NCBI RefSeq assembly: GCF_965227735.1
Contig: NZ_OZ245776.1
Coordinates: forward strand, 760,852 to 824,851
Reading direction: 5' to 3'
Source: Larkinella sp.
GTDB taxonomy: Bacteria; Bacteroidota; Bacteroidia; Cytophagales; Spirosomataceae
Length of the DNA stretch: 64,000 bases
The notes beneath the pieces are model-generated. The model was not told the origin of the DNA. It was given only the letters and a program-made list of their open reading frames with translations, and ran no database searches. The position numbers and the translations under genes were made by a program. Shown one piece after another: positions 27,785 to 61,385 of this stretch (the stretch's first letter is position 1; each line of letters opens with the position of its first letter).

Positions 27785-27862
27785 CGGTATTCGGTATTCG
27801 GTGGCTGACGCATTCAGATGCACGCGTCAGCCACCGAATACCGTATACTGAAAACCGAATAC
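27785..27862. repeat. Heptamer-armed hairpin between convergent genes (probable bidirectional terminator/REP-like)
   Basis: Perfect 20-bp arms CGGTATTCGGTGGCTGACGC (27792-27811) and GCGTCAGCCACCGAATACCG (27824-27843), with extra CGGTATT/AATACCG-type units. Confidence 0.85.
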
Positions 27863-27867
27863 CCATT

Positions 27868-29697
27868 TTACAACGTCTCGACCGTGCGACGGATGAACGC
27901 GGTCAGGTCGGAGCCGGAAAGCATGCCCTGTGCCAGTTTGGCCAGATCCAGGCTTTGTTTAACCAGTACCTTTTGCTCGTCTGCATTATCCAATTTCAAA
28001 ATGCGGTCGGCCAGCGGGTGGTTGGCGTTCACGGCAATGTTGTAACTATCCGGCATGGCACCGAACATACCCCGTTCGCCACTCAGCGCGGACATATCTT
28101 TCATCCGGCGGAAAAACTCGGGCAGGGTGATGATCACCGGCAGTTCGTCGGTTGGCATGGCTTCGACGGAAACCGTACCGGTTTTGCTCTCCAGCGCTTC
28201 CTCAAACAACGTTTTCAGTTTCGTTTTGTCGTCTTCCGACAGCACACTTTCGTTGTTGATCCCCTTGTCGATCAGCTTGTCAAACGTATCGGCATCGACG
28301 CGTTTCAGGCTGGTTTTTTCGAGCTTGTATTCCAGTTGATTGATGAAATGGCTGTCGATCACCGTATCGAACAGCAAGACTTCATACCCGCGTTTCCGGG
28401 CCGATGCGATGAAACCGTCCTGTTTTTGCAGATCGTTCGTATAAAGCCAGACAACCGAACCGTTTTTATCAGTCTGATTTTCCTTAACGGCTGCGCTAAA
28501 CTCCTCAAAGGTGAAGTATTTCCCGTCTACGTTTTTCACCAGACAGAAGTCCTTGGCTTTTTCGTAGAATTTCTCATCGCTGATGATACCGTATTTGACA
28601 AACAGGCCGATGTCATCGAATTTCTGTTCAAAACCGGCGCGGTCGTTGCGGAACAGTTCTCCCAGTTTATCAGCAACTTTCCGCGTGATGTACCCGTTGA
28701 TTTTCTTGACATTGCTGTCGGCTTGCAGAAAACTCCGCGACACGTTGAGCGGAATATCCGGCGAGTCGATTACGCCGTGCAGCATCATCAGAAAGTCCGG
28801 CACGATGTCTTTGACCTCGTCAGTGATGAACACCTGGCGACTGTACAATTGAATTTTTTCACGCCGGATCTGAAAATCATTTTTAACCCTTGGGAAATAC
28901 AGCACGCCCGTCAGGTTAAACGGATAATCGACATTCAGGTGAATCCAGAACAGGGGCTCTTCCGACATCGGATAGAGTTCCTTGTAAAAATTCAGGTAAT
29001 CTTCGTCGGTCAGATCAGAAGGCGACTTGGTCCAGATCGGGGCAGTATTGTTGATGGTTGCGCCATCGAATTCGATGTCGATGGGCAGAAACCGGCCGTA
29101 TTTATCCAGAATTGACCGAAGGCGGTCTTTATCCAGAAACTCTTCCGAATCAGCGGCAATGTGCAGAATGATGTCCGTTCCGTGTTCCGCGCGCTCGGCT
29201 TCCGTAATTTCAAACTCAGTCGAACCATCGCAAATCCAGCGGGCGGCTTCCGAGCCTTCCCGATACGATTTGGTGATAATTTCGACGTGATCAGAAACCA
29301 TGAAGGCCGAATAGAAGCCCAGGCCAAAATGACCGATGATCGCGCCTTTTTCGTCCAGCTTGTCTTTGTATTTTTCCAGAAATTCAGAGGCACCGGAAAA
29401 CGCAATCTGGTTGATGTACTTCTTGATTTCTTCCGCCGTCATCCCAATGCCCCGGTCGCTGACGGTGATGGTTTTGGCTTCTTCGTCGAGGGTGACGGTC
29501 ACTTTCAAATCGCCCAGCTCACCGTTAAATTCGCCGAATCCGGCCAGTTTTTTCAGTTTCTGGGATGCATCGACGGCATTAGAAACCAATTCCCGTAAAA
29601 AGATCTCGTGATCGGAATAGAGAAATTTTTTGATGATCGGAAAGATGTTTTCCGTATGAATCGAAATTTGACCTTTTTCCTGAATGGTCGAGCTCAT
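27868..29697 (-). CDS. htpG: Chaperone HtpG (Hsp90)
   Basis: FLYSDHEIFLRELVSNAVDA, IIGHFGLGFYSAFMV, IPLNVSRSFLQ. Confidence 0.98.
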   Translation of the reverse strand: MSSTIQEKGQISIHTENIFPIIKKFLYSDHEIFLRELVSNAVDASQKLKKLAGFGEFNGELGDLKVTVTLDEEAKTITVSDRGIGMTAEEIKKYINQIAFSGASEFLEKYKDKLDEKGAIIGHFGLGFYSAFMVSDHVEIITKSYREGSEAARWICDGSTEFEITEAERAEHGTDIILHIAADSEEFLDKDRLRSILDKYGRFLPIDIEFDGATINNTAPIWTKSPSDLTDEDYLNFYKELYPMSEEPLFWIHLNVDYPFNLTGVLYFPRVKNDFQIRREKIQLYSRQVFITDEVKDIVPDFLMMLHGVIDSPDIPLNVSRSFLQADSNVKKINGYITRKVADKLGELFRNDRAGFEQKFDDIGLFVKYGIISDEKFYEKAKDFCLVKNVDGKYFTFEEFSAAVKENQTDKNGSVVWLYTNDLQKQDGFIASARKRGYEVLLFDTVIDSHFINQLEYKLEKTSLKRVDADTFDKLIDKGINNESVLSEDDKTKLKTLFEEALESKTGTVSVEAMPTDELPVIITLPEFFRRMKDMSALSGERGMFGAMPDSYNIAVNANHPLADRILKLDNADEQKVLVKQSLDLAKLAQGMLSGSDLTAFIRRTVETL

Positions 29698-29893
29698 GAC
29701 AATAAAAATTAGAGTATGATTGACGCAATAAACTGATGCCCACCCGGCACCAACAACTGTTCCAGAGCATCAGAATGTGACAAGTTGGCAGTAAAAAGCC
29801 GGGAAAAGGTCAAGGGAAAATAAAAGATTGCGGTTCCTCTACTATTTTCCGGCCTGAGAAAACACCCTTTCCTATTTTTGTGTTTCGTATGCA

Positions 29894-30244
29894 ATGACAC
29901 CGCATGAGCCACCCATCTACACCGCCCTATCGCCTGTGAACCCGAAAACATATACCGACATTACAACGGAAGAAATGGAGTCACTGGTGATGGAACCGGA
30001 AACCGTCATTGTCGACGTGCGCGACGAATGGGAATTTGAAGAATTCAACATCGGCGGCCTGAACATTCCACTGGCCGAAATCCGCAGCAAACGGCATTAT
30101 CTCCTGCCATATGACAATGTCATCGTGGTCTGCACCAACGGCGTTCGAAGCCGGGTGGCGGTGAAGGATTTCTGCCGCCATCCCGAAATGGAAGAAAAAC
30201 AGTTGTACCACCTCAAAGGCGGCATTCTCGGAGCCGAAGAGTGA
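29894..30244 (+). CDS. Rhodanese-like domain protein
   Basis: IVDVRDEWEF, GGLNIPL, VVCTNGVRS active-site loop, LKGGI. Confidence 0.9.
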   Translation: MTPHEPPIYTALSPVNPKTYTDITTEEMESLVMEPETVIVDVRDEWEFEEFNIGGLNIPLAEIRSKRHYLLPYDNVIVVCTNGVRSRVAVKDFCRHPEMEEKQLYHLKGGILGAEE

Positions 30245-30248
30245 TTGT

Positions 30249-31022
30249 TTAAACCTCTACCGAACCGGTGAATACCCGAACCGCAGGGCCGATTAAATAA
30301 AGATTGCTAAAACCGCCGTCGGCAGTGGTAACGAAGGATACCCGCAAATTACCGCCCAGCGTCTGAATTGAAACCGGACTGCTCATGCCGAGTTGCTGGT
30401 GTGCAACCAAAGCCGAAGCCGTCACGCCCGTCCCGCAGGAATAAGTTTCGTCCTCAACACCCCGCTCGTAGGTTCTGACAAACAAGGCATTAGCACCGAT
30501 GGGTTGCATAAAATTGGCGTTGGTGCCACCGGGTGCAAACCGACTGTCATAGCGAACCGGCCGGCCTTCCGCTACGACATCCATCGACTCAACATCTTCC
30601 ACCACTTTCACGTAATGCGGAGAACCGGTATTCAGAAAAGCATAATCCGCCTGCTGGTCGATCCCGGCAATTTCATTCATTTTCAAGGACACTTCCGCTT
30701 CGGTGACCGAAGCCTGGTGTTCACCATCGACGGCCAGAAAACGGGTTTCTGTTTCGAACAAGCCTAAATCGTGCGCAAACCGAACAATGCAGCGTCCGCC
30801 ATTGCCACACATGCTGCCTTCCGCGCCATCCGCGTTGAAATAGATCATCTGGAAATCATACTCCGGATGATTACGGAGCAGAATCAAGCCATCGGCGCCG
30901 ATTCCGAACCGACGGTGACAAAGCCGGGCAATGCGTTCCTGCGAAACCGGGAAGGTTTCGGCACGGTCGTCGATCAGGATGAAATCGTTGCCCGTTCCCT
31001 GGTATTTGAAGAAATCGATCAT
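30249..31022 (-). CDS. dapF: Diaminopimelate epimerase
   Basis: FFKYQGTGNDF, MCGNGGRC, NTGSPH, ERGVEDETYSCGTG. Confidence 0.98.
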   Translation of the reverse strand: MIDFFKYQGTGNDFILIDDRAETFPVSQERIARLCHRRFGIGADGLILLRNHPEYDFQMIYFNADGAEGSMCGNGGRCIVRFAHDLGLFETETRFLAVDGEHQASVTEAEVSLKMNEIAGIDQQADYAFLNTGSPHYVKVVEDVESMDVVAEGRPVRYDSRFAPGGTNANFMQPIGANALFVRTYERGVEDETYSCGTGVTASALVAHQQLGMSSPVSIQTLGGNLRVSFVTTADGGFSNLYLIGPAVRVFTGSVEV

Positions 31023-31027
31023 TTCGT

Positions 31028-31078
31028 GAGTTAAGAATTAAGAGTTGGCTGACGCATACAAACTCTTAACTCTTTTTT
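31028..31078. repeat. TTAAGAG heptamer-armed hairpin upstream of dapF
   Basis: GAGTTAAGAATTAAGAGTT-ggctgacgcataca-AACTCTTAACTCTT. Confidence 0.7.
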
Positions 31079-31086
31079 TGGGGTAC

Positions 31087-31115
31087 AAAAAAAGCCGTCC
31101 GGACAGACAGCTTTC
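31087..31115 (-). terminator. Intrinsic terminator after rplS
   Basis: Minus strand GAAAGCTGTC-TGTCCG-GACGGCTTTTTTT. Confidence 0.8.
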
Positions 31116-31136
31116 TTACTGAGAAGAGGGGCAGTA

Positions 31137-31514
31137 CTACGCCTGTGGCTGTCTAACTTTAGCCTTGCGTTCCTTGATCCGTGCTGCTTTACCCTGACGA
31201 CCACGCAGATAGAACAAACGTGCCCGGCGAACGCGGCCCAGACGAACCAATTCAACTTTGTCGATATTCGGCGACAGAATCGGGAAAATCCGTTCTACAC
31301 CGATACCATTTGAGATCTTGCGTACTGTAAACGTTTCTCCGTTGGTGTTCGGATTCCGGCGTTGGATCACCGTTCCCGAATAAACCTGAATCCGCTCTTT
31401 GTTTCCTTCACGGATTTTAACATGTACATTGACTGTGTCGCCTGAATTGAAGTCCGGAAAATTGTTCCGCCGACCTGCATTCTCAGCTTCGACCAGTTTA
31501 ATTAATTCACTCAT
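31137..31514 (-). CDS. rplS: 50S ribosomal protein L19
   Basis: [51 protein letters not shown]. Confidence 0.99.
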
Positions 31515-31557
31515 GACCGTAGATATCTTCGGGGGTATGAAATTTCCTAATAAGCCG

Positions 31558-31565
31558 CAAATATA
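31558..31565 (-). promoter_or_regulatory. -7 promoter box for rplS
   Basis: Minus strand TATATTTG followed by CGG. Confidence 0.65.
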
Positions 31566-31699
31566 GCCAAAAGATTCCGTTTTATAAATAGTTGCCCTTA
31601 AAATAAATTGATTGCCACCCGAACCGTGGAAAGTTAACGGGTTTTTAGCTAATTCGCCATCGAAGACCTGAACTCGTTAGTCCCAGTTGATCCAGCCTG

Positions 31700-33199: not shown

Positions 33200-33637
33200 C
33201 ACCCGTGGCGGTTTTTGATGGTAGAAATACCCGCCTTTAAAAAAGATTTCTTCCAGTCCATCGATTTTCTTACAACCATCGTAGATACGAGCGGGTCTAA
33301 CGCTGTGTAATACGTTCCCAATGGGTGTAGAAAAAAATCTACACTTACCCATCAGCTCTTGTGTATGAAAAACTAGAAAAATGCTTTCCGGCTTTTTTTA
33401 CAATACATAATAGACTGATAATCAGACAAATTTTCCTTTTGGTAAGTCAAGTCAAAAAAACGGTATTCACTGGAATAGTATTTGACTGAAGATTAAGTAG
33501 TCCACTACAACTTGAAATGTAGAAACTACCTGTTTTGAAAATCGCGTAGTTGTACGCATTTCAGAACCACCCGAATTGCCGAATTTTGTAGCCTATATCC
33601 AGCATATCCTATATCAACACCATAATTGACCATTGCC

Positions 33638-33805
33638 ATGAGAAACGTTGTCCCAAAAGAATGGAGAGCAAATCGTACAGGAGGCCGCCGTGCTCGATTT
33701 GAAATTGACCAGATTTCATTGTTAGGCGTCTTGACCGTTATGATATTTGCCTATATTCTCTTCCACTTCGTTTACCCAATCATCTCGAAAGGGTTATTCT
33801 GGTAA
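33638..33805 (+). CDS. Probable 55-aa single-pass membrane protein; absent from ORF track
   Basis: MRNVVPKEWRANRTGGRRARFEIDQISLLGVLTVMIFAYILFHFVYPIISKGLFW*; basic N-terminus plus hydrophobic helix; -7-like GAATTTTG upstream; lies in a 700-bp gap with no other credible gene. Confidence 0.6.
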   Translation: MRNVVPKEWRANRTGGRRARFEIDQISLLGVLTVMIFAYILFHFVYPIISKGLFW

Positions 33806-33906
33806 TGTAAACCGGGTAATCCACACCAAAGAATCATCCACACCAAAACAGATTTCATTAGGAAAAGCGGATTTCAAAACCGGCTGCTCCCGATGAAATC
33901 TGTTTT

Positions 33907-36045: not shown

Positions 36046-36104
36046 GGAAACTATGGAATGAAAAAGCCGGGAACTGTCGTACAACACCCGGCCCCCTGAC
36101 GATA

Positions 36105-36347
36105 TTATTGTTCGATTAATATGGTAGCCGCTTCTGATTTCCGCATCGATAAACAGTACCCGGAAACATTCAGACAAATGGGATCTCCCAACGGCGCTTT
36201 GCAGTGAAGACACACTTCCGTGCCGGGTAAACATCCCATTTCAAGCAACTTCAGCGACATCCACTGGTCACTAAATGACTCGATTACCGCTTTTTCGCCA
36301 ACCTTTAAATCGGCGACACTGCGCTTCTGTATTTTTCGGTGGGGCAT
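36105..36347 (-). CDS. feoA: Ferrous iron transport protein A (five Cys)
   Basis: LLEMGCLPG...APLGDPI...LSMRKSEA motif; directly upstream of feoB. Confidence 0.95.
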   Translation of the reverse strand: MPHRKIQKRSVADLKVGEKAVIESFSDQWMSLKLLEMGCLPGTEVCLHCKAPLGDPICLNVSGYCLSMRKSEAATILIEQ

Positions 36348-36358
36348 TCGCGTACGAT

Positions 36359-37325: not shown

Positions 37326-37326
37326 A

Positions 37327-38031: not shown

Positions 38032-38073
38032 TTACCTGTTGAAACGTGTTACCACTTTACACTACTCACTACT

Positions 38074-38283
38074 ATGATACCTAAATTCCTAGTCTTTTGC
38101 TTTTTGGTATTGCTGTCGTTCAGCAGTCAGGCACAGGAAATTGAGATGGCTGACCGGCTTCGGGCCGATGGTAAAATCTGGGTTGTTGTGGCCGTCTTTC
38201 TGGTCACCTTTGCGGGGGTCATTGCGTACCTCATCCGACTGGATACGAAAATTAGTAAACTGGAAAAAGAGATTTCTAAATAG
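38074..38283 (+). CDS. ccmD: CcmD-family small membrane protein
   Basis: MRADGKIWVVVAV-type TM followed by YLIRLDTKISKLEK; lies between ccmC and ccmE. Confidence 0.8.
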   Translation: MIPKFLVFCFLVLLSFSSQAQEIEMADRLRADGKIWVVVAVFLVTFAGVIAYLIRLDTKISKLEKEISK

Positions 38284-38366
38284 ACAAGAGAGCCGCGACG
38301 GCGGACCGTTTAGACAAGAGAGTAAAGAAAAACCGGATGCGTTTTTGTCTTTACTCTCTTGTCTAA
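38281..38366. repeat. AGACAAGAG-armed hairpin between ccmD and ccmE
   Basis: Perfect 19-bp arms at 38310-38328 and 38348-38366, plus a direct copy TAGACAAGAGAG at 38281. Confidence 0.85.
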
Positions 38367-38383
38367 CCTCTTTATTCTCAATC

Positions 38384-38824
38384 ATGAAAAAAACACATAT
38401 TCTCGGTATTGTCGTGATTGCCCTGGCAATCGGTATCATCATCTCCACGGCGGGGGATGCCAGTTCCTACGTGACTTTCACCCAGGCGGCTGAACTGGCG
38501 AAAAGTGGCGAATCCGACGGCGTTCACGTCGTGGGCACGCTGACCAAAGACGCGCAGGGCAAGATCATCAACATGGTGTATCAACCCCAGGTCGACCCCA
38601 ACCGCTTTGAATTTACGCTGGTCGACACCGAAAACCACCTTCAGAAAGTGGTGTATAACTCGCCCAAACCGCAGGATTTCGACCGTTCCGAACAGGTGGT
38701 GGTCATCGGCAGCATGCAGGGCGATCATTTCCGCGCGGACAAAATCCTGCTGAAATGTCCGTCGAAATACCAGGATAACAAGCTGGAAACCAAAGAATAC
38801 GAAGCGAAAACGGCAAAGTTATGA
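38384..38824 (+). CDS. ccmE: Heme chaperone CcmE, CxxxY variant
   Basis: N-terminal TM from ATG 38384; SEQVVVIG...ILLKCPSKY. Confidence 0.93.
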   Translation: MKKTHILGIVVIALAIGIIISTAGDASSYVTFTQAAELAKSGESDGVHVVGTLTKDAQGKIINMVYQPQVDPNRFEFTLVDTENHLQKVVYNSPKPQDFDRSEQVVVIGSMQGDHFRADKILLKCPSKYQDNKLETKEYEAKTAKL

Positions 38825-38930
38825 ATGAATGGTTCTGCTGGCTGAATAGGGTTGAATGGTTAAAAAACCGTCAACCATTCAACCATCAGAACCATCTAAC
38901 CATCCCTTTAGCCATTCGAACCATTCAATC
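38822..38930. repeat. GAATGGTT/AACCATT-armed hairpin between ccmE and ccmF
   Basis: GGTTGAATGGTT (38850-38861) pairs with AACCATTCAACC (38873-38884); several AACCAT(T/C) units run up to ATG 38931. Confidence 0.75.
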
Positions 38931-41567
38931 ATGATTCATACAACCGTCGGTAATATCGGCCACCTTTTTGTCATTATCTCATTCGTTACGGCGCTGATGT
39001 CCACGTTTGCGTACCTGCGGATTTCGCTGGCGGGTAACGAGCTGTTGCAAAACAAACGGGAAATCACGCAGTGGCGCTGGCTGGCCCGGGGTGCTTTCTA
39101 CCTCCACGGCGTGGCCATTTTTGGTATCGTCGCCTGTCTGTTCTACATCATTTCCAATCATTATTACGAATACCATTACGCCTGGAGTTACTCGTCGCGC
39201 GCGTTGCCGGCCGAATACATCATCTCGAGTTTCTGGCACGGACAGGAAGGCAGTTTTCTGCTGTGGCTGTTCTGGAACGTCATTCTGGGTATCGTTCTGA
39301 TTCAAACCAACCGCGACGACCGGGCGAAAAGCCTGAGTTCACGCCAGTGGGAAGCGCCCATGATGACGGTTTTTGCGCTGGTTCAGGCGTTTCTGGCATC
39401 CATGATTCTGGGTGTGGTCTTTGGCGATACGTTCAAGATTGGCAGTTCGCCGTTCCTGTTGCTGCGGGATGCGATGGCCGATGCGCCGATTTTCACCAGC
39501 AATCCGAATTACATTCCGGAAGATGGCAAGGGTATGAACCCGCTGCTGCAAAATTACTGGATGGTCATTCACCCGCCGACGCTGTTTCTGGGCTATGCCA
39601 CGACGCTGATTCCGTTCGCTTTTTGCATCGCCGGTTTGTGGAAAAACGAGCCGAAAGAATGGATGCGGCCCGCCCTTCCCTGGGCGTTGTTTTCGGCGAT
39701 GGTGCTGGGCGTCGGGATTCTGATGGGTGGCTATTGGGCTTACGAAACGCTTAATTTCGGGGGCTACTGGAACTGGGACCCGGTCGAAAACTCGGTGTTG
39801 GTGCCCTGGATGGTGCTGATTGCCGCCATTCACGCCATGCTGATTGCCAAAAAGAGTTCGACTGGTTTGAAAACCGCCATCATTCTTTCCGTAGCGACGT
39901 TCCTGCTGATTCTGTATTCGACCTTCCTGACCCGCAGCGGTATTCTGGGCAATGCCTCGGTTCACTCGTTTACGGATCTAGGACTTTCCGGCCAGTTGCT
40001 GGTTTACATGCTGGTTTTCGTGGCCATGGCCGTGGTGTTAATCAGTTTCAAGTGGAAATTGATCGAGAAAGACGAAGAAGAAACCTCCGTGTATTCCAAA
40101 GAATTCTGGCTTTTCATCGGTGCCATCGTGCTCTGTCTGGCCGGTTTTCAGGTTCTGAACACCACCTCGTTTCCGGTTTATAACAAAATTGGCGAAGCTT
40201 TCGGATTTAGCCCCAACATCGCCATGCCCGCCGATCAGGTGGCGCACTACAACAAATTCCAGATCTGGTTTTTCTCGGCCATTGCGCTTTTGACAGGAAT
40301 CGGACAATTCATCTGGTGGCGCAAAGTGGGCAAAGGCAACCTGAACGCCCTTATCACTTCCGGCATCCTTACGATGTTCATCAGTGGCGGTTTGATTGCT
40401 TATGGTGATATTACCAAACCGGCCTTCATGGTGTTGCTCACCACTTCGGTTTTTGCCATTGTTGCGAATTCCAGCATTTTTTGGGGCGTCGTTCGGGGGA
40501 ATTACAAGCTGTCGGGTGGCGCGGTGGCCCACATTGGTGTGGCATTGATGCTGGTCGGGATTTTGTTTTCGTCGGGCTATTCCAAAATTGTCTCCCTGAA
40601 CAACACCGGTTTGCTGATTTCGAAAGGGGACGATTTTACGAAAAATGATAACAAGGAAAACAAGGAAAATGTCATCCTGTGGCTCAATCAGCCGCAGAAA
40701 ATGAGCGGTTATTTGCTGACCTACCGGGGCCAGCGGATCGAGATTCGCGACGTGCCGGACTACGTTCCCCGCAACTGGGTCGAGCCGATTGTGGGCGCCA
40801 CGCCTGAACTGAGTTTCCACGGCATTGCGACACGGGATATTGAACAAAACGGTAAGCTGTACCACAAAAAAGGCGATACCGTTGCCCTGCACCCCGAAAA
40901 CACCTATTACGAAGTGGAATACCGCGAACCGGGGGGCAAAATTTTCACTTTGTACCCGCGCGGTCAGATCAACGAGCAAATGGGCGCAGGCGGTTTTCTG
41001 CCTTCGCCGGACATTCGCCGGATGCCCGACAAAGACCTGTATACTTACGTAGCGACCGTTCCGGACCCCAGCAGCGAAGGCACCTGGAGTCCGACGGAAA
41101 CTTACCGGATTGCGCCCAAAGACACGTTCTTTGTGAACGATTACGTAGCGGTTTTTGACAATGTGATCCAAACCCGCGAAATTGAAGGAACGCCCCTCGG
41201 ACCGAACGATGCGGCCGTCAAAGCCGTGGTTCGCGTGCTGGACAAAGAGCGGGAATATACCCTGTCGCCAGCCTTCATCATCAAAGACCGTATGGTGGGC
41301 CGCAAAGCAGAAACCAACGAAGAACTTGGTTTGCGGCTCCAACTGAACGAAATCGATCCGCGAACCGGCCTGTTTACCTTCACGGCCAACACCACCCAGC
41401 GCGATTACATCGTAATGAAAGCCAAGGAAATGCCGCTCATCAACCTGCTCTGGATCGGGACGTTTGTGCTCGTGATCGGTTTCTCAATGGCTGCAATCCG
41501 TCGCTACCGGGAATTCACCAAGATGCGGGACAAAAAGAAGCCGACGCTGGTGGGCAGTTCACAGTAG
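38931..41567 (+). CDS. ccmF: Cytochrome c biogenesis protein CcmF (large form)
   Basis: FWHGQEGSFLLW, LLQNYWMVIHPP, GGYWAYETLNFGGYWNWDPVEN, LTRSGILG..SVHSF; start moved to ATG 38931. Confidence 0.96.
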   Translation: MIHTTVGNIGHLFVIISFVTALMSTFAYLRISLAGNELLQNKREITQWRWLARGAFYLHGVAIFGIVACLFYIISNHYYEYHYAWSYSSRALPAEYIISSFWHGQEGSFLLWLFWNVILGIVLIQTNRDDRAKSLSSRQWEAPMMTVFALVQAFLASMILGVVFGDTFKIGSSPFLLLRDAMADAPIFTSNPNYIPEDGKGMNPLLQNYWMVIHPPTLFLGYATTLIPFAFCIAGLWKNEPKEWMRPALPWALFSAMVLGVGILMGGYWAYETLNFGGYWNWDPVENSVLVPWMVLIAAIHAMLIAKKSSTGLKTAIILSVATFLLILYSTFLTRSGILGNASVHSFTDLGLSGQLLVYMLVFVAMAVVLISFKWKLIEKDEEETSVYSKEFWLFIGAIVLCLAGFQVLNTTSFPVYNKIGEAFGFSPNIAMPADQVAHYNKFQIWFFSAIALLTGIGQFIWWRKVGKGNLNALITSGILTMFISGGLIAYGDITKPAFMVLLTTSVFAIVANSSIFWGVVRGNYKLSGGAVAHIGVALMLVGILFSSGYSKIVSLNNTGLLISKGDDFTKNDNKENKENVILWLNQPQKMSGYLLTYRGQRIEIRDVPDYVPRNWVEPIVGATPELSFHGIATRDIEQNGKLYHKKGDTVALHPENTYYEVEYREPGGKIFTLYPRGQINEQMGAGGFLPSPDIRRMPDKDLYTYVATVPDPSSEGTWSPTETYRIAPKDTFFVNDYVAVFDNVIQTREIEGTPLGPNDAAVKAVVRVLDKEREYTLSPAFIIKDRMVGRKAETNEELGLRLQLNEIDPRTGLFTFTANTTQRDYIVMKAKEMPLINLLWIGTFVLVIGFSMAAIRRYREFTKMRDKKKPTLVGSSQ

Positions 41568-41574: not shown

Positions 41575-41802
41575 ATGAAAATCAGAGAAACCGTTCTTAT
41601 TTCCCTTTCCATCGGCTGCCTCATTCTCTGGGTTCTGGAGTTCCGGCGGACGCGTACGTTTGGCGAACATTACTGGCTAATTATGCTGTGTCTGGCGTTT
41701 TTGCTGGCTTTTATGTATGTTCGTGGCGTACACCTGAATTCGGTCAAACAAAAACCAACCGTTCCGGTGAAACCAACCCGAAAAAAGAAGAAAAAGTCTT
41801 GA
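41575..41802 (+). CDS. Hypothetical two-TM membrane protein with basic tail
   Basis: Two hydrophobic segments and a KPTRKKKKKS tail; 7 nt after ccmF. Confidence 0.7.
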   Translation: MKIRETVLISLSIGCLILWVLEFRRTRTFGEHYWLIMLCLAFLLAFMYVRGVHLNSVKQKPTVPVKPTRKKKKKS

Positions 41803-41876
41803 ACTCGGATTACCAGGATTAAAGGATTAACCAGGATTGCTGACGCGGTCTTTTAATCCGCGTAATCCAAGTTCAG
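41800..41876. repeat. GGATTA-armed hairpin; right arm repeated at 8941-8965
   Basis: TGAACTCGGATTACCAGGATTAAAG ... CTTTTAATCCGCGTAATCCAAGTTCA; 41852-41876 matches 8941-8965 at 24/25. Confidence 0.8.
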
Positions 41877-43179: not shown

Positions 43180-43261
43180 ATGCAAGAGTAAAGACAAGAG
43201 AGTAAAGACATCCTCTGAAATTCCGTTACCACCTCTCTATTCTCACTTCTCTATTCTAAAA

Positions 43262-44596: not shown

Positions 44597-44695
44597 AATA
44601 ATGAATGTTGAATAACGAATATCGAATAATGAAAAAAGAAGGCTCATGCGTTCAAGACTTCATTATTCGATATTCGTTATTCAATATTCATTATT
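44597..44695. repeat. NNNGAAT heptamer-armed hairpin, copy 1
   Basis: 37-bp arms at 44597-44633 and 44659-44695 with one G-T mismatch; between convergent genes. Confidence 0.92.
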
Positions 44696-48092: not shown

Positions 48093-48113
48093 GAAATTTA
48101 AAGGTGGTTGTTG

Positions 48114-48187
48114 CACAGAGTTAATCAGAGGGTATCAGAGAAAATCGTTGATTAACTCTGCTATCCTCTGATTAACTCTGTGTAATT
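48114..48187. repeat. CAGAG 10-mer-armed hairpin, copy 1
   Basis: Perfect 18-bp arms at 48114-48131 and 48165-48182; units CAGAGTTAAT, CAGAGGGTAT, CAGAGAAAAT. Confidence 0.85.
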
Positions 48188-51693: not shown

Positions 51694-52015
51694 AGCCCAA
51701 CGGGCTACCATCACTAGCCCCGGACATCGTCCGGGGAACCCGGGGCGTCGTTCGGGGAACCCGGGGTGTCGTTCGGAGAATCCAGGGTGTCGGGAAATTC
51801 GGGCATCCGAAACAGGTACGATTAACCGCCTAGCACCCTGAAAAGATATATTCCAATTCTATTCAACCCTTTCAGGGTTCTACTCAGACCAGCATAAGCC
51901 ATTAGCCCCGGACGATGTCCGGGGTTAATGATGAAGAGCCCTTCGGGCTATATAATCGCCCCTCACCAACAGCCCAACGGGCTGTCATCATTAGCCCCGG
52001 ACATCGTCCGGGGAA
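51694..52015. repeat. Cluster of three ~45-bp bipartite REP-like elements plus an ACCCTGAAA inverted pair
   Basis: AGCCCnnnGGGCT, spacer, CCCCGGACATCGTCCGGGG at 51694-51738 (+), 51906-51949 (-) and 51971-52015 (+); ACCCTGAAA...TTTCAGGGT at 51835-51878. Confidence 0.88.
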
Positions 52016-52034
52016 TCGGGATGGTCGGGGCGTC

Positions 52035-52262
52035 CGGGTATCCGGAAAATCCGGGGCGTCCGGGGAAATCCGGGACGTTCGGAAAATCTGGGGTATCCTG
52101 GAAATCCGGGAAATCCGGGGCGTTCGGAAAATCTGGGGTATCCTGGAAATCCGGGAAATCCGGGACGTTCGGAAAATCCGGGGTATCCTGGAAATCCGGG
52201 GTGTTCGGAAAATTCGGGGTGCCCGGAAAAATCCGGGGCGTCCGGGAAATTCGAGGAATCCG
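52035..52262. repeat. GC-rich 9-bp tandem array with 45-bp higher-order period
   Basis: CCGGG/GGAAAT-type nonamers; CGTTC recurs at 52076, 52121 and 52166, then TGTTC at 52202. Confidence 0.9.
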
Positions 52263-52378
52263 GAGCGGTTTTATTCAAAAAAATCCTCCAAACAAAAAAT
52301 GCACAGATGGTGTATGGTATTACACCGATGCTGTAATTTCCGGAACGAATACCGGCCCAATTGCCTATACTTGACCCC

Positions 52379-53623: not shown

Positions 53624-53698
53624 GCCCCTAAATCCCCTGAAGGGGACTTGGACTCGCCAATTTAGGATGCAAAAGTCCTCTTTAGGGGATTTAGGGGC
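53624..53698. repeat. REP-like inverted doublet between convergent genes
   Basis: GCCCCTAAATCCCCTGAAGGGGACTT (53624-53649) and AAGTCCTCTTTAGGGGATTTAGGGGC (53673-53698), 24/26 complementary. Confidence 0.88.
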
Positions 53699-53702
53699 GT
53701 TT

Positions 53703-54560: not shown

Positions 54561-54575
54561 ATTATTTTGCTCCGC

Positions 54576-54649
54576 TTCCCTCTGATGTACTCTGATCAAC
54601 TCTGTGTAATCGTTGTTTCACAGAGTTGATCAGAGTACATCAGAGGGAA
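54576..54649. repeat. CAGAG 10-mer-armed hairpin, copy 2 (arms in reverse order)
   Basis: Perfect 31-bp inverted repeat at 54576-54606 and 54619-54649. Confidence 0.92.
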
Positions 54650-54656
54650 TCAGGGT

Positions 54657-55814: not shown

Positions 55815-55867
55815 TGGTTAATTCGGGTCGCCAAAGCGATCATTACACGGATAAAATAACGAGACCG

Positions 55868-55875
55868 CAAAAGTA
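55868..55875 (-). promoter_or_regulatory. -7 promoter box for aminotransferase-tyrA
   Basis: Minus strand TACTTTTG followed by CGG. Confidence 0.6.
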
Positions 55876-55891
55876 CGCTATTTCCGTGTAA

Positions 55892-58555
55892 TTACTCGCT
55901 CCGCAACGACTTCACCGGATTCATCAGGGCCGCCCGGATGCTTTGGAAACTGATCGTCAACAGAGCGATGAAAACCGCCAGGAGACCGGCCAGGGCAAAG
56001 ACCCACCACTCGATGTCTACTTTGTAGGCAAAGTCTTTCAGCCATTCGTTCATGGCCCACCAGGCCACGGGCGCGGCCAGCATCAGGGCAATGAACACCA
56101 GTTTCAGGAAGTCCTTCGACAAAAGGGCAACAATGCCGGCTACCGACGCGCCCAGCACTTTCCGGATGCTGATTTCTTTGGTGCGCTGCTCGGCAGTAAA
56201 CGTCGCCAGACCAAACAGTCCCATGCAGGAAATCAGGATGGCAATGGCCGTTGCGGTATTAACTAATCGACTGGTTTTCTGTTCCTTTTCGTAGAGTTGA
56301 GCAATCCGGTCGTCCAGAAAATCGTACTCGAATTTTTTATCGGGATGCACGGTTTTCCATTGGGCTTCAATGCTTGCCAGCGTCGCTTTCAAATCGTTGG
56401 CGGACTTGCCTTTCGTCGTCATTTTGACACCGATATTTCGGGCTTGCGGCAGGAGACCGATAAAAGTCGGATCAATTTTGTAGTGAAATGACTGCTCATG
56501 AAAATCGGCCACTACGCCGACAATGGGGTATTTTTTACCGTCAAAATCCAGGAATTGATTTAGCGCATCTGCCGGTTTTTGGAAACCCAATCGTTTTGCG
56601 AATGTGGCATTAATGACCAGTTCCCGGAGCGAATCGCTTTTGTGGAAGTTTCGGCCAGCCAGTAACCGAAGGTTGTAGAGCGGAATAAAATTCGCATCGC
56701 CCACTTTAGCTGACACATCCAGTTCAATTTCTTTTTTGTAGTGGTACTTCATTTTGGTCATCATGTAGCCCATGCCCATCGGCGGAAACCACTGCTTCGT
56801 CACCCGTTCGACGCCGGAAAGCTGTCTGATTTTTTCGGCCAGCAATTCGGTTTTTCCCACCCGCGCGGTCTTTACTTCAATAATGGCGTCGGTCGAAAAG
56901 CCCAGGTCTTTATTCCGGACGTAATTGAGCTGGCGTTCAACGATCAGCGATCCGCTTATAAAGGTCAACGAAACCGAAAACTGAAAGACAATCAATCCTT
57001 TGCGCAGATATCCTTTATTTCCACCTTTCAGCGCACTTTGCCCTTTGAGCGTCAGCGCGGGCAAATAAGACGATAGAATCAGCGCAGGATAAAAACCGGC
57101 CAGCAAAGTCGTTGTAATCGTGACGATCAATAAAAACACCAAGGTTTGCAGACTGAATAAGTCGAAAGTCAGGCCTCTGGGCGTGAGCGATTGAAATGCG
57201 GAAAGGATTGGATTGACAAGCACCAACGCAATACCAACAGCCAGAAGGGTCAGTAAAGTTGTTTCGCTCAAGAACTGAAAAATCAGGCTTTTCCGGCTAC
57301 TTCCCAGCACCTTCCGAACGCCCACTTCCTTCGACCGCTGCACCGATTGCGCCGTTGCCAGATTGATGAAATTGATGGCGGCAATCAGCAGGATAAAAAC
57401 TGCCACGCCCATCATGCCATATAAAGTGGGTAGGTGGGCTTTCCGGGCATAATTATCGGCATAATCCGCATTAAAATGCAGATCGGAAAGCGGTTGCAAG
57501 CCAGGTACAAATTTGAATTTATTCTGAAAATGACGACGGGAAAATTGTTGAAAAGAAGTCGAAAACTGCTCGGGTTTCGCGCCTTCGGGTAATTTTACAA
57601 ATGCCTGCGACGCCGACCAGAGGGCCTCCCACTGATCGAGGTCAATGCTCCCTTTCATCATCTGGTTACTGCGAATGGTTGCGAAAGAAATGAAATCCGT
57701 AAACGTGAAATCGGTCGGTCTGTCCCATTCCTTCACAATACCGCTCACCCTGACCCGAAGCGAATCCCAATAAATGACATCTTTCCCAATGATTTGTTCG
57801 AGTGGCAAATCGCCGAAGTATTTGCGGGCTTTTCGCTCAGAAAGCACGAGTTGATACGGTTCTTTCAAAGCGGTTTTCGGATCACCGACCAGCCATTGGT
57901 ACTTGAAAATGTCGAAGTACTGGGGTTCGGCAACGATAATCTCCTCATTGTCGACATTGTGTTTTCCGGCTTCAAACCGCTTCGGCTTTTCCTGCCCATT
58001 CGGAATTAAAACCGCTGAGTTGATATTGTGAAAAGCCGCGACCGTTCCCAGTCCCGTAACCTCGTTCCGAACCGCCAGCGGCATGCCATTGGGAACGAAA
58101 CCCGCCGGTCGGGTTTCTCCTTCGGGGTCGGACTTTTCAACCCCAACCAACCGATAAATCCGTTCCCGGTCGGGGTGAAACGTATCGTAGCTCAATTCAT
58201 AATTGGTAATCAGGTATATCACCAGACAGGCGGTTACGCCCAGACTCAGGCCGAAAAGATTGATCAGCGAACTAACCTTGTTTTTGGTCAGGTTTCGGAA
58301 CGAGGTTTTGAGATAATTGCGAATCATGACAGGATGCAGAAAAGAGGGTGACGGATACTGATTGGTCTGACGTTTCAGCGCAAAAGGCTTAATAAATTTC
58401 AACACATTAGCCACATACCGGTGGTTGGCTTTTCGGACGCCCACCTCCGCCAGATCCCGCCCGTAGCGTTCGTACAAATCGCCCTGCACCTCCTCCAGCA
58501 AGTGAGGAGCGCAAAAGAATTGCAACAATTTATCAGCATATCCAGGCGGCTTCAT
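55892..58555 (-). CDS. Duplicated MacB/FtsX-type ABC permease with N-terminal permease-prefix domain, paralog 1
   Basis: MKPPGYADKLLQFFC...EEVQGDLYE prefix; MIRNYLK; RSKEVGVRKVLG; QRTKEISIRKVLGAS; NPVKSLRSE. Confidence 0.95.
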   Translation of the reverse strand: MKPPGYADKLLQFFCAPHLLEEVQGDLYERYGRDLAEVGVRKANHRYVANVLKFIKPFALKRQTNQYPSPSFLHPVMIRNYLKTSFRNLTKNKVSSLINLFGLSLGVTACLVIYLITNYELSYDTFHPDRERIYRLVGVEKSDPEGETRPAGFVPNGMPLAVRNEVTGLGTVAAFHNINSAVLIPNGQEKPKRFEAGKHNVDNEEIIVAEPQYFDIFKYQWLVGDPKTALKEPYQLVLSERKARKYFGDLPLEQIIGKDVIYWDSLRVRVSGIVKEWDRPTDFTFTDFISFATIRSNQMMKGSIDLDQWEALWSASQAFVKLPEGAKPEQFSTSFQQFSRRHFQNKFKFVPGLQPLSDLHFNADYADNYARKAHLPTLYGMMGVAVFILLIAAINFINLATAQSVQRSKEVGVRKVLGSSRKSLIFQFLSETTLLTLLAVGIALVLVNPILSAFQSLTPRGLTFDLFSLQTLVFLLIVTITTTLLAGFYPALILSSYLPALTLKGQSALKGGNKGYLRKGLIVFQFSVSLTFISGSLIVERQLNYVRNKDLGFSTDAIIEVKTARVGKTELLAEKIRQLSGVERVTKQWFPPMGMGYMMTKMKYHYKKEIELDVSAKVGDANFIPLYNLRLLAGRNFHKSDSLRELVINATFAKRLGFQKPADALNQFLDFDGKKYPIVGVVADFHEQSFHYKIDPTFIGLLPQARNIGVKMTTKGKSANDLKATLASIEAQWKTVHPDKKFEYDFLDDRIAQLYEKEQKTSRLVNTATAIAILISCMGLFGLATFTAEQRTKEISIRKVLGASVAGIVALLSKDFLKLVFIALMLAAPVAWWAMNEWLKDFAYKVDIEWWVFALAGLLAVFIALLTISFQSIRAALMNPVKSLRSE

Positions 58556-58559
58556 ATCA

Positions 58560-58652
58560 TTTTAATATCGAATACTGAATGTTGAATAATGAATATCGAA
58601 GTAATCGGACCGCACTTCGATATTCGTTATTCAACATTCGATATTCAGTGTT
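58560..58652. repeat. NNNGAAT heptamer-armed hairpin, copy 2
   Basis: 26-bp stem at 58577-58602 and 58614-58639 with one T-G pair. Confidence 0.92.
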
Positions 58653-58657
58653 ACTTT

Positions 58658-61282
58658 TCATTCCGAACGCAGACTCTTCACCGGATTCATCAACGCGGCT
58701 TTGATGCTTTGGAAACTGATGGTGAGCAAGGCAACGCCGACCGCCAGCAAGCCCGCCAACGCAAACACCCACCATGCGATGTCGACTTTGTAGGCATAAT
58801 CCTGCAACCACCGGTTCATGGCATACCAGGCTACGGGCGTGGAAAAGACGATGGCGACCCCTACAAGTTTGAGAAAATCCTGCGAAAGCAGACCCACAAT
58901 GCTCGTCACCGAAGCACCCAGCACTTTCCGGACACCAATTTCTTTCGTGCGCTGTTCGGCCATGAAAGCCGCCAGCCCAAACAAGCCTAAACAGGAAATA
59001 AAAATGGCCAGAAACGCGAAGGAGTTGGCCAGCGTGCCGACCACGGTTTCGCTGCGGTACAATCGCTGAAAGGCCTCATCAGCAAACTGGTAGGTGAACG
59101 GAAACTTTGGATTCAGTTGTCGCCACATCATTTCCAGACTCGCCAGGGCTTGTTTGGTTTGGCCCGGCTGGGTGCGAATGATGATGTTTTTCCCCCCGGC
59201 GGCCGGACTCAATTTAGCAATGAACGGTTCGATGGCCACGTGCATGGAATTCTGGTGGAAATCGTCGACCACTCCGATGATCAAACCGGGTTTGCCCCAC
59301 AAAGTCAGCGGTTTTCCGATCGGGTCCCGGTAGCCAATCCGGCGGGCTGCGGTTTTGTTGATCAGATAACTGACCGAGTCGGTGGCAAAATCGCGTGAGA
59401 AATCGCGCCCGGCAACCTTGACTTTCAGGGTCTTCGTGAAATCATAATCGACTTGTGAAAACTGAAACTGGACGTTGGTGGCCGGATCTTTACCCGGCCA
59501 TTGGACGTTGCCCGTCGTGCCGAAACTGGTAGTTGGCGTTCCGTTCATGAACGTTACGGTCTGAATGCCCGGCATTCGGAGCAGTTCCTGTTTGAACGTT
59601 TCGTATTTGGCGGCCAAATCCCCCTCAGCCTGGAGGTAAATCATTCCCTCCCGGTCGTAGCCCAGGTTTTTGGTCTGGATAAAATCGATTTGCCGGTAGA
59701 CCATGATGGTTCCGATGATCAACAGCATCGACAGGGCGAACTGAAAAACCACCAGGCTCTGCCGGAAAAGTCGCGCCCCGGAACCAAACCGGATGCTTCC
59801 TTTCAAGATCCGAACCGGATTTAGTGACGATAAGAAAAGGGCGGGGTAACTGCCCGCAATCAAACCCGTGGCCAGGGTCATGACCAGCAAGGTTACCCAG
59901 AACGATGGGTCCGTAAACTGGAACGTGATGTGCTTCTCGGTCAGTGTGTTGAAGGTTGGCAATAGCATCCAGACCACGCCCACGGCCACCACCAGTGCCA
60001 GCGACGTCAGCACCATTGCCTCGCCAATGAACTGCCCGATCAGCAAGCCCCGACCGGCGCCAACCACCTTCCGAACGCCTACTTCCCGCGCCCGCTTCAC
60101 CGACCGGGCCGTGGCCAGATTCATGAAATTGATGCAGGCAATCAGCAGGATAAAAACCGCCACGACGCCAAACAACCGGACGTATTCGATGCGCCCGCCA
60201 TCCTGATAGCCGTTTTTGAAATTGGAATAGAGATACGCTTCCGGGTAGGGTTGCAGAAAAAGCTGAATATCCAACCCCTCCTTTTCCATTTTCGGATTGT
60301 ACTTTTTCAGAAAAGCCTTCATCTTGGCTTCCAGCCGACCGGGATCGGCGGCTACACCGTTGCGGTCAGTTCGAAGTTGGATGCGGGTTTGAAGCGCGTT
60401 GGTGCCCCATTCTTTGAGCCATTCATTGTGCCGCATAAAATCGGCCCAACTCAGCACATAATCGTAGGTTTCGGAGCTGTTTTTCGGCATCTCATAAACC
60501 GCACTGACCTGATAATCGTCTTTGTTACCGAGTCGAATGCTCTGTCCCATAGCCGCCTGCGGGCTACCAAAATAATTCTCCGCGAGTTTCCGCGAAATGG
60601 CAATGTTTGTCGGCCCGTTTAAGGCGGTTTCGGCCGTTCCGGCTAACAAGGGAAGACTGTACATTTTAAACCAGTCGGCACCGACAGCCCGGCCTTTTTC
60701 CTTGTTCAGCTTTTCGCCCACCGAAAACGTCAGTTCCTGCTCCCAGGAAAGGCCGGACGCGTAGACAATTTCCGGGAATTCTTTTTTCAGTTCATCAGCC
60801 AGCAAAGCGGGTGTTCCCGGGCTTGCCTCCACTTTGCCGTCGTAGAACTGGCGTTCCATGACGTTGTAAAGCTGCGGGCCATTGGCGTGATAGGCGTCGA
60901 CGCTCCATTCGTCCTGAATCCAGAGCAGAATGAGCAGGCTGCACGCCAGGCCAAGCGCCAGGCCCAGAATGTTGATGGTCGAAAACGATTTGTTGTGGGC
61001 GATGTTCCGCCAGGCGATTTTCAGATAATTGCGAATCATACCAGGATTCAGGAAAGAGATGGATGGATGTTCGTTCGCTTGTCGTTTGAAGAAAAAGGGC
61101 AATCCAGCCCGGGGTTTTAGAAAACTCAGCACTTCCCGCGCATATTGCCGCCGGGCGTAGGGGAGTCCAAATAGCTTCGCATTTCGCAAAAACCGCTCGT
61201 ATAAATCCCCCTGAATCTCCTCAAAAAGATGAGGAGCGCAGAAGAATTGTAACAGTTTATCAGCGTATTTTGGCGGTTTCAT
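58658..61282 (-). CDS. Duplicated MacB/FtsX-type ABC permease with prefix domain, paralog 2
   Basis: MKPPKYADKLLQFFC prefix; MIRNYLKIAWRN; KRAREVGVRKVVGA; NPVKSLRSE. Confidence 0.95.
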   Translation of the reverse strand: MKPPKYADKLLQFFCAPHLFEEIQGDLYERFLRNAKLFGLPYARRQYAREVLSFLKPRAGLPFFFKRQANEHPSISFLNPGMIRNYLKIAWRNIAHNKSFSTINILGLALGLACSLLILLWIQDEWSVDAYHANGPQLYNVMERQFYDGKVEASPGTPALLADELKKEFPEIVYASGLSWEQELTFSVGEKLNKEKGRAVGADWFKMYSLPLLAGTAETALNGPTNIAISRKLAENYFGSPQAAMGQSIRLGNKDDYQVSAVYEMPKNSSETYDYVLSWADFMRHNEWLKEWGTNALQTRIQLRTDRNGVAADPGRLEAKMKAFLKKYNPKMEKEGLDIQLFLQPYPEAYLYSNFKNGYQDGGRIEYVRLFGVVAVFILLIACINFMNLATARSVKRAREVGVRKVVGAGRGLLIGQFIGEAMVLTSLALVVAVGVVWMLLPTFNTLTEKHITFQFTDPSFWVTLLVMTLATGLIAGSYPALFLSSLNPVRILKGSIRFGSGARLFRQSLVVFQFALSMLLIIGTIMVYRQIDFIQTKNLGYDREGMIYLQAEGDLAAKYETFKQELLRMPGIQTVTFMNGTPTTSFGTTGNVQWPGKDPATNVQFQFSQVDYDFTKTLKVKVAGRDFSRDFATDSVSYLINKTAARRIGYRDPIGKPLTLWGKPGLIIGVVDDFHQNSMHVAIEPFIAKLSPAAGGKNIIIRTQPGQTKQALASLEMMWRQLNPKFPFTYQFADEAFQRLYRSETVVGTLANSFAFLAIFISCLGLFGLAAFMAEQRTKEIGVRKVLGASVTSIVGLLSQDFLKLVGVAIVFSTPVAWYAMNRWLQDYAYKVDIAWWVFALAGLLAVGVALLTISFQSIKAALMNPVKSLRSE

Positions 61283-61286
61283 GTGG

Positions 61287-61385
61287 TTTTAATATCGAAT
61301 ACTGAATGTTGAATAACGAATATCGAAGTAATCGGGCCGCTTTTCGGTGTTCGATATTCAACATTCAATATTCGTTATTCAGTGC
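61287..61385. repeat. NNNGAAT heptamer-armed hairpin, copy 3
   Basis: 61287-61335 matches 58560-58608 at 48/49; right-arm heptamers are in a different order. Confidence 0.92.

Follow-up and report, generated by a model that had tools for sequence, protein, structure and literature searches.

We studied long hairpins at the gene junctions of a 64-kb stretch of a Larkinella sp. genome (the window; positions 760852–824851 of a single-contig, 7.74-Mb genome with 52% GC). In many of these hairpins, the arms are built from short tandem units, and we refer to these as periodic hairpins. With a probability of roughly 0.6, the periodic hairpins represent a genome-wide population of dispersed palindromic repeats, resembling repetitive extragenic palindromes (REPs) or MITEs (miniature transposable elements with inverted repeats), that have slippage-prone arms of short units, are kept up at the DNA level, and lie in or replace terminator hairpins. 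They are found at gene 3′ ends, filling convergent and intra-operon spacers; they are long-lasting at a given junction, and their abundance varies within the genus. Comparison of relatives reveals changes at the DNA level: mirrored slippage of units, exchange between arms that keeps them complementary, flipped loops, insertion of repeats or small genes into loops, and replacement of one unit family by another.

Abundance, architecture, and position

The genome was scanned for hairpins with an ungapped search (+1/−3, score ≥18, loop ≤60), and an order-3 Markov genome equal in size to the real genome served as the chance control. The scan yielded 829 long-hairpin loci in the real genome and none in the Markov genome (best score 16), which excludes chance as their origin. 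Arms were called periodic at ≥60% self-match at a period of 5–12. Periodic arms are present in 299 of the 829 hairpins, mainly with period 7 (n = 183), followed by periods 10 (n = 49), 9 (n = 32), and 8 (n = 32), and overall the genome contains roughly 300–350 periodic hairpins. A preliminary description of the window, made from its sequence, had called such hairpins pervasive and proposed a genome-wide census of hairpins and tandem repeats; this census, which also used Tandem Repeats Finder, bears out their pervasiveness.

Among intergenic tandem tracts, 529 have period 7, and 394 of them (74%) have an inverted partner within 160 nt. Partners at this distance are also found for 90 of 155 tracts of period 10, 80 of 122 of period 8, and 44 of 74 of period 14, and for only 2 of 11 tracts of period 6 and 2 of 46 of period 11. 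The genome therefore has the features expected of heptamer arrays: period 7 is over-represented (529 tracts, compared to 11 for period 6 and 46 for period 11), the tracts form facing inverted pairs, and between orthologous junctions of seven genomes, array length varies in steps of complete units.

The unit families include GAATnnn, CGGTnnn, CAGAGnnnAT, AAATGnn, GAATGAnT, GATGAAn, AGACAAGAG, TTAAGAG, and AAACCGTTn. Each arm unit consists of a conserved core plus variable spacer positions (e.g., GAATnnn, CGGTnnn, CAGAGnnnAT). Arms have a median length of 29 nt and 35% GC, loops have a median length of 20 nt, and whole elements span 60–110 bp. The CGGTnnn family with a GGCTGACGC...GCGTCAGCC stem top occurs at about 80–96 loci. 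Each window element matches 7–57 other loci, with 43–57 loci for each GAAT or CGGT element, and copies within a family have degenerate units in a common order around unrelated loops. The preliminary description was right that there are several unit families and that they occupy both convergent spacers and operon interiors. It had also proposed that the hairpins arise repeatedly; independent origins at each site were not borne out, and the hairpins belong to dispersed families of 10–100 copies with a common unit order and polarity.

This polarity is shared by all main unit families, with the G-rich unit in the 5′ arm and its complement in the 3′ arm. Over the whole genome, the G-rich unit is in the 5′ arm of 304 hairpins and in the 3′ arm of 28. 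Because a palindrome reads alike on both strands, the polarity is independent of the direction of transcription or replication. The GAAT, AAATG, GATGAA, and GAATGAnT types may be related to one another, which would leave ~4–5 independent cases of polarity. There is also a nested element at genome position 481657, where the loop of a CGGT/GGCTGACGC hairpin holds GAAT-family heptamers.

GAAT-family hairpins also separate the members of arrays of FtsX/MacB paralogs (~870–900 aa), both in the window (55892–63998) and elsewhere in the genome (2807279–2834227 and 4814209–4819883). Because such a hairpin separates each paralog, part of the GAAT-family copy number derives from duplication of gene arrays. 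Another dispersed repeat of ~85–125 nt (e.g., genome 1850819–1850942) has many ~90%-identical copies here and in the related genomes G003, G010, G005, and G007 (related genomes are denoted by G numbers).

Hairpins are mostly intergenic (88%) on a map of 6208 genes, which is a crude call of the longest open reading frames (ORFs). They are present at 246 of 1120 convergent junctions (22%), 425 of 3968 tandem junctions (10.7%), and 61 of 1119 divergent junctions (5.4%). Periodic hairpins start a median of 8 nt (interquartile range 3–22) past the neighboring stop codon and end a median of 25 nt before the downstream start codon, the latter distance being approximate because of the crude gene map. 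The preliminary description had stressed arms that end 0–20 nt ahead of an ATG; this applies to ~30% of the 5′-side distances, but given the median of 25 nt, the stop-codon side is the more regular of the two. Stop codons can lie inside the hairpins, as with the ccmF TGA at 41800 and both convergent stops in G009 at 53624. We also considered that units with periods of 7, 8, and 10 could place stop codons in all three frames; this signal was weak (30% of periodic arms block all frames vs. 14% of shuffled ones), and we rejected the idea.

Turnover among relatives

We compared the window with the syntenic 34 kb from seven congeners, which have 72–76% (G003, G002, G004, and G010) or 51–55% (G009, G005, and G012) identity at four-fold degenerate sites. 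The CcmF protein encoded in the window shares 79% identity with its Larkinella soli counterpart and ~66% with those of Spirosoma. Across the seven congeners, hairpins are kept at the same junctions. The preliminary description had proposed a search for covariation across relatives, and the arms do co-vary at 54576 in seven genomes: pairing is intact in 94.6% of cells, both partners have changed in 11 of the 37 pairs, and 0 of 500 shuffles are equal, with 36–43% paired in slid-register controls. The unit cores of this hairpin (CTCTGAT) are invariant, and the compensatory changes are at spacer positions.

Slippage, which had been suggested from the window alone, is confirmed by whole units that were gained or lost in mirrored fashion on both arms (44597 in G003; 31028; 41800). 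At five junctions (27785, 38281, 38822, 53624, and 54576), loops are inverted between relatives that are ~90% identical. The inversions between these close relatives are direct evidence for DNA-level exchange between the arms.

Unit families are also replaced at a given junction. Four different families occupy 53624 in different species, and at 58560 and 61287, GAAT has switched to AAATG, GAGTTAA, TTAAGAG, or GAACAAT types. The insertions of a GC-rich repeat (CCCCTAAATCCCC) observed in relatives are all (4/4) in the loops of periodic hairpins. By these four insertions, the GC-rich hairpin GCCCCTAAATCCCCTGAAGGGGACTT, which resembles a REPIN (REP doublet forming a hairpin), has been recently mobile in relatives. 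The GAACAAT/TAACAAT variant is present at orthologous junctions of G005 and G012 and in other places in G005, so within-genome copies are more alike than orthologs.

The abundance of periodic hairpins differs widely among congeners, with 21 per 400 kb in this genome, 18 in G005, 5 in G009, and 0 in G001. Similarly, four consecutive GAATnnn units occur 127 times here and 1–28 times in congeners. Across the family, these four-unit tracts are patchy (64 of 121 genomes), and each genome has its own spacer variants.

Some more distant relatives have plain hairpins where periodic ones stand in others. At junction 44597, there are plain 15–16-bp hairpins in G001, G006, and G008, while G011 has a GC stem followed by T7, a textbook terminator. 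The 3′ end of ccmF has a plain 11–19-bp hairpin in L. soli, Dyadobacter, Arundinibacter, Arcicella, Emticicia, and Pontibacter, and a long periodic hairpin in Spirosoma utsteinense and S. terrae. The orthologous sites of G011 and Dyadobacter have both the GC stem and the U-tract of a Rho-independent terminator. These plain, terminator-type hairpins at the same junctions imply that the periodic elements occupy terminator positions. Periodic hairpins internal to operons (e.g., ccmE-ccmF) are lineage-specific additions.

Hairpins of the window

Pfam searches confirmed the gene names given in the preliminary description, namely ccmF, a CNNM/CorC "hemolysin," HlyD, an aminotransferase, tyrA, htpG, and permeases, and they identify the permeases of the window as three ~870-aa FtsX/MacB paralogs. 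Inverted repeats with tandem-unit arms were recovered where they had been described, by both Tandem Repeats Finder and an inverted-repeat finder: 27787–27848, 31026–31075, 38310–38366, 38815–38932, 41800–41875, 44597–44695, 48111–48185, 54576–54649, 58563–58653, and 61291–61380 (no strand is assigned to any of the elements below). RNA folding of each element was compared with 200 shuffles. By this measure, 9 of 11 named junctions are very stable hairpins (−34.8 to −60.9 kcal/mol, z = −6.3 to −13.6), a stability that no shuffle matched (0 of 200). Most of the sites named earlier thus stand as hairpins, but folding indicates that 43183 is a decayed pair and 8941 a solo arm.

A CGGTnnn heptamer hairpin at 27779–27870 (−47.7 kcal/mol, z −8.8) has the stem top GGCTGACGC/GCGTCAGCC and pairs arms that start at 27787 and 27819. 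It lies between two convergent genes, one at 27194–27781 (+) and htpG at 27868–29697 (−), and its loop is inverted in G002 and G004. The short TTAAGAG heptamer hairpin at 31026–31075, with GGCTGACGC in its loop, is contracted to ~2 units per arm, vs. 4–5 in relatives.

Within the ccm operon, the AGACAAGAG(AGTAAAG) hairpin at 38281–38372 has 23-nt arms (starting at 38310 and 38344) that are 96% complementary, and its loop is inverted compared to G003, G002, and G004. The AACCATT/GAATGGTT hairpin at 38815–38935 has arms starting at 38815 and 38877, and its distal arm reaches the true ccmF start, the ATG at 38931. Conservation of the protein begins near residue 26 of the long ORF, and the longer ccmF ORF call is an over-extension into this hairpin. 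In the G010 copy, a GC-rich repeat is inserted in the loop. The GGATTA hairpin at 41800–41875 (−34.8 kcal/mol, z −6.3; arms starting at 41800 and 41849) begins with the ccmF stop codon, as the TGA forms the first bases of its 5′ arm, and the CNNM/CorC gene starts 9 nt past its 3′ arm. In G002, the interior of this hairpin is a plain 8-bp GC stem, and the outer TGAAC/GTTCA pairs are kept. At 43180–43260, the decayed AGAGTAAAGAC / CTCTATTCT pair makes no significant hairpin (−13.7 kcal/mol, z = −1.3), and G004 and G005 have a GC-rich repeat inserted centrally in it.

The nnnGAAT heptamer hairpin at 44597–44695 (period 7; −54.5 kcal/mol, z −13.6) lies between a DUF2383 gene and a minus-strand gene that are convergent. 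Its 37-nt arms, 44597–44633 and 44659–44695, are 97% complementary. There are two decamer hairpins of opposite polarity. The CAGAGnnnAT hairpin at 48111–48185 (−39.8 kcal/mol, z −10; arms starting at 48111 and 48150) separates two minus-strand genes, one of the HlyD family and one of the FtsX/MacB type. The other, at 54576–54649 (CTCTG...CAGAG; −60.9 kcal/mol, z −13.1), starts 7 nt past the aminotransferase stop and ends ~14 nt ahead of the tyrA start; its 34-nt arms (54576–54609 and 54616–54649; period 10) are 97% complementary. Each of two nnnGAAT hairpins lies between two FtsX/MacB paralogs. At 58563–58653 (arms starting at 58563 and 58614), G004 has an AAATG-type family instead and G009 a TTAAGAG-type family, and at 61291–61380 (arms starting at 61291 and 61343), G004 has a GAGTTAA family and G005 a GAACAAT variant.

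The non-periodic, GC-rich REPIN-like hairpin GCCCCTAAATCCCCTGAAGGGGACTT at 53624–53698 exactly fills the space between two convergent stops. With 97 loci genome-wide, it represents a repeat class distinct from the periodic hairpins, with which it shares junctions. The solo GGATTA-type arm at 8930–8975, in a divergent spacer, forms no hairpin (z = −1.55) and is related to the 3′ arm at 41849. Logan contigs from the strain's own DNA runs end exactly at long hairpins (window 54605–54620, 58690, and 61320). Two of these DNA runs have even depth and 30-kb contigs, and a further run belongs to the same strain at low depth and does not represent a second one. Of the RNA runs filed under this organism label, three yielded 0 reads on 8.4 kb, and 0 reads also came from one other run. 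Two sets of repeats in the window are unrelated to the hairpins: in-frame tandem repeats with a 21-nt unit ×18 (1736–2121, inside the ORF 1574–2197) and 9/18/45-nt GGGAAATCC-type repeats (52033–52264).

Origin, function, and known analogs

If the periodic hairpins are dispersed palindromic repeats, the palindrome could maintain itself, with the arms recombining and with repair by fold-back or template switching. New copies would preferentially land in, or grow from, existing hairpins, and a hairpin would therefore stay at the junction. When transcribed, a stem of −35 to −60 kcal/mol may stand in for the terminator or 3′-protective hairpin that it replaced, and perfect duplexes of 25–40 bp may be RNase III substrates as well. 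A role as RNA is plausible, and its effect, if any, would be the one expected from a very strong 3′ stem or from an RNase III site.

Several observations weigh against the dispersed-repeat interpretation. Among the congener junctions compared, none that was demonstrably empty was caught gaining a periodic element, and neither a target-site duplication nor a mobilizing enzyme was found for periodic elements. The only empty sites seen are for a cassette of arms plus a PF05635 gene (G009 and G011); the other junctions always have some hairpin. Hairpin retention at most junctions would be expected under a selected function no less than under targeting of existing hairpins. The unit cores, invariant in seven genomes with identity at four-fold sites as low as 51–55%, look like the outcome of purifying selection or homogenization, not drift. 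Part of the spread is plain co-duplication with FtsX/MacB gene arrays, and the distances to start codons are only approximate, as noted above.

The preliminary description had favored RNA-level elements that set mRNA stability, processing, or operon stoichiometry. On this view, the hairpins would be selected 3′-end stabilizers, processing sites, or non-canonical terminators, with selection on folding to keep the arms complementary. The very stable stems, the strong covariation at 54576, and the invariant cores speak for it, as does the persistence of a hairpin at a junction even after its family has changed. The plain terminators at the same junctions in relatives lend indirect support to a 3′-end role. 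The hairpins start within the ribosome footprint of the stop codon, and in Escherichia coli, the upstream gene is translated less when a REP lies ≤15 nt from its stop codon. As a test of the RNA idea, the preliminary description had named an excess of G-U-compatible mismatches, and it was not found: on the sense strand at tandem junctions, there are 77 G-U vs. 92 A-C mismatches (p = 0.28), and non-periodic hairpins have 107 G-U-type vs. 97 A-C-type mismatches. Transitions do dominate, in keeping with the G-T-compatible mismatches reported earlier, but there is no strand asymmetry; because G-U does not exceed A-C on the transcribed strand, these mismatches reflect only the predominance of transitions. 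The stems are also not followed by a sense-side enrichment of U-tracts (a run of ≥5 T within the 8 nt that follow: 10.6% sense vs. 15% antisense). We rejected canonical Rho-independent terminators as the identity of these elements because the T-run is absent; the arms have 35% GC, and the median stem is 29 bp. A search of the 64-kb window with Rfam 15 gave 0 matches at gathering score. The lack of both G-U/A-C asymmetry and U-tracts argues against selection at the RNA level. Moreover, the hairpins are dispensable, since one congener has none in 400 kb; their 25–40-bp stems far exceed the need of any known stabilizer; and the loop flips and mirrored unit changes point to an active DNA-level process able to keep the arms complementary. 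Altogether, we consider it unlikely that the hairpins are primarily selected RNA elements.

Set against MITEs, arms conserved within a family act like terminal inverted repeats; between arms, only PF05635 and PF13366 genes were found, neither a known transposase. As in REPs and REPINs, the periodic hairpins are extragenic, downstream of ORFs, and enriched at convergent and unidirectional junctions; unlike REPs, they have no conserved unpaired tetranucleotide tag (GTAG or CGTC). The GGCTGACGC core was considered as a CGTC-tagged REP and rejected, as the CGTC in GCGTCAGCC is base-paired and leaves no unpaired tag. Mobilization by REP-associated tyrosine transposases (RAYTs) was likewise rejected because the six intact Y1_Tnp genes have separate, GC-rich REP families of the GTAG/CTAC type at their flanks, e.g., ATCCCTACGGGAT (~100 copies) and GGTCGCTACGCGACC, in place of periodic hairpins. 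A short CGGT tract at one Y1_Tnp flank is no more than expected by chance. The RAYT-like Y1_Tnp loci (genome 5726941–5727636; also 6719724, 4149077, and 5157179) are classical REP-RAYT units in a Bacteroidota genome, and their REPs are probably related to the REPIN-like cluster at window 51694–52015.

The loops that hold genes suggest another explanation, in which small selfish gene cassettes with PF05635 or PF13366 in the loop have the periodic arms as their ends or landing pads. As with rRNA intervening sequences, RNase III would cut the long stem and free the gene from host transcripts, and the ~300 ORF-less hairpins would be MITE-like derivatives. Both PF05635 genes (23S_rRNA_IVP, a four-helix bundle) and both PF13366 genes (GxxExxY) of the genome lie between inverted periodic tracts, and the four pairs of tracts belong to four different unit families: ATTGAGTG 8-mers, GAATAAC 7-mers, CAGAGTTAAT 10-mers, and CGGATTTAA 9-mers. 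This 4/4 association compares with a background in which periodic tracts lie at both ends of only 2.0% of genes and are inverted and of one family in only 0.29%. A GAAT-armed PF05635 cassette is missing at the orthologous convergent junction of G009 and G011, and hairpin copies with similar arms can have wholly different loops, both of which would suit a mobile cassette. However, four loops with genes stand against ~300 without, and two unrelated gene families in the same setting suggest that the loops are a safe harbor rather than parts of one transposon. Almost the entire genus has the PF13366 gene of genome position 1849456 at the same site. Neither protein counts among the known transposases, and the 23S genes have no intervening sequence (three genes of 2910 nt vs. 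a 2925-position model). We also examined far-apart inverted arm pairs (150–3000 nt) as candidate cassettes and rejected them; most bracket housekeeping genes (hslV, ispD, trpS, transaldolase) and are neighboring junction hairpins of one family. We regard a cassette origin of the arms as improbable.

A protein that reads the unit cores would offer a further explanation, with the arms as phased binding sites for a DNA- or RNA-binding factor, such as a nucleoid-associated protein, a gyrase-like partner as for bacterial interspersed mosaic elements (BIMEs), or a ring-shaped RNA binder (TRAP, HutP). Invariant cores with variable spacers, the strict polarity, and a 10-nt period equal to one helical turn are consistent with this, and the genome-specific unit variants could track a co-evolving factor. 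Yet several factors would be required for at least five unrelated cores with four periods, congeners do not share the same cores, arrays are missing from one congener, and no candidate gene is linked, making such binding sites highly improbable. Lastly, the dispersed-repeat interpretation can be extended to one self-maintaining system, in which palindromes home into or grow from terminator hairpins, are homogenized between loci into species-specific unit dialects, and serve both as processing stems and as safe harbors for PF05635/PF13366 selfish genes, just as rRNA intervening sequences carry them. We hold this combination in its full form to be rather unlikely.

The likeness to cyanobacterial STRR sequences (short repetitive units repeated in tandem) and to REPs, pointed out in the preliminary description, is fair. 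STRRs are reportedly lineage-specific intergenic heptamer arrays of several families. Some are said to lengthen an RNA helix, such as P12 of RNase P, and small mobile repeats are said to be embedded in heptamer arrays, much like the GC-rich repeat inside Larkinella hairpin loops. To our knowledge, STRRs are mostly described as direct arrays, and systematic stop-adjacent hairpins in Bacteroidota fall outside that description. In chloroplast spacers, the loop between short hairpin-forming inverted repeats reportedly flips between close relatives while the arms stay complementary. Those minute inversions concern single sites in an organelle, whereas the Larkinella elements form a dispersed family.

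In line with the earlier impression, our searches turned up no account of periodic-arm hairpins in Spirosomataceae or Cytophagales, but inverted heptamer arrays as such are known from Xanthomonas (PMC4692102). Each genome of Xanthomonas campestris and X. axonopodis has 70–75 pairs of GGGAATC heptamer arrays that face each other from opposite strands, are intergenic, and can form stem-loops (Rehm et al. 2015, PMC4692102), and these arrays have conserved junctions and variable length (PMC4692102). They are the closest published analog. They differ in belonging to another phylum and in having one G-rich, G-quadruplex-capable unit, compared to at least eight AT-rich (35% GC) unit families with periods of 7–10 in Larkinella, where degenerate units follow a fixed order and some families have a conserved stem top. 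Larkinella also has inverted loops, replaced families, and cargo genes, none of which was reported for the Xanthomonas arrays (PMC4692102).

REPs, BIMEs, and REPINs are dispersed extragenic palindromes downstream of ORFs, mostly at convergent or unidirectional junctions, with several families per genome, and they are insertion targets (Di Nocera 2013, PMC3733652; Bertels and Rainey 2011, PMC3116915). While REPs are 20–40-bp GC-rich palindromes with an unpaired GTAG or CGTC tag that flank a RAYT gene, the Larkinella periodic hairpins are AT-rich, untagged, 60–110 bp long, and unlinked to RAYT. Intergenic TAACTGA heptamer arrays near start codons are known from Beggiatoaceae, cyanobacteria, and five Bacteroidetes (MacGregor 2015, PMC4679880) and are absent from relatives at the same junctions (PMC4679880). 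These arrays consist of one heptamer in direct repetition, placed upstream of starts, with only one inverted case and no hairpin design described (PMC4679880). What is new here is the many unit families, the fixed order of degenerate units, the polarity rule, the flipping of loops, the succession of families at one site, and the cargo genes.

These elements take up approximately 5% of this genome's gene junctions and also many junctions of other Spirosomataceae, and they may thereby shape operon transcripts. In practice, the hairpins fragment short-read assemblies, assemblers could mis-orient their loops, and they can mislead start-codon calls, as with the over-extended ccmF ORF. They also provide a natural system for the survival and evolution of long palindromes in bacteria, in which flips, mirrored slippage, succession, and unit variants can be followed among sequenced congeners. 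If PF05635 and PF13366 prove to be linked to such arms more widely, two abundant protein families of unknown function would gain a genomic context, and the heptamer hairpins of Bacteroidota would be connected with cyanobacterial STRRs and rRNA intervening sequences. Should the elements prove to form a self-maintaining system, they would constitute an undescribed kind of Bacteroidota element that is mobile or evolves in concert and follows a common 5′-G-rich/3′-C-rich polarity rule.

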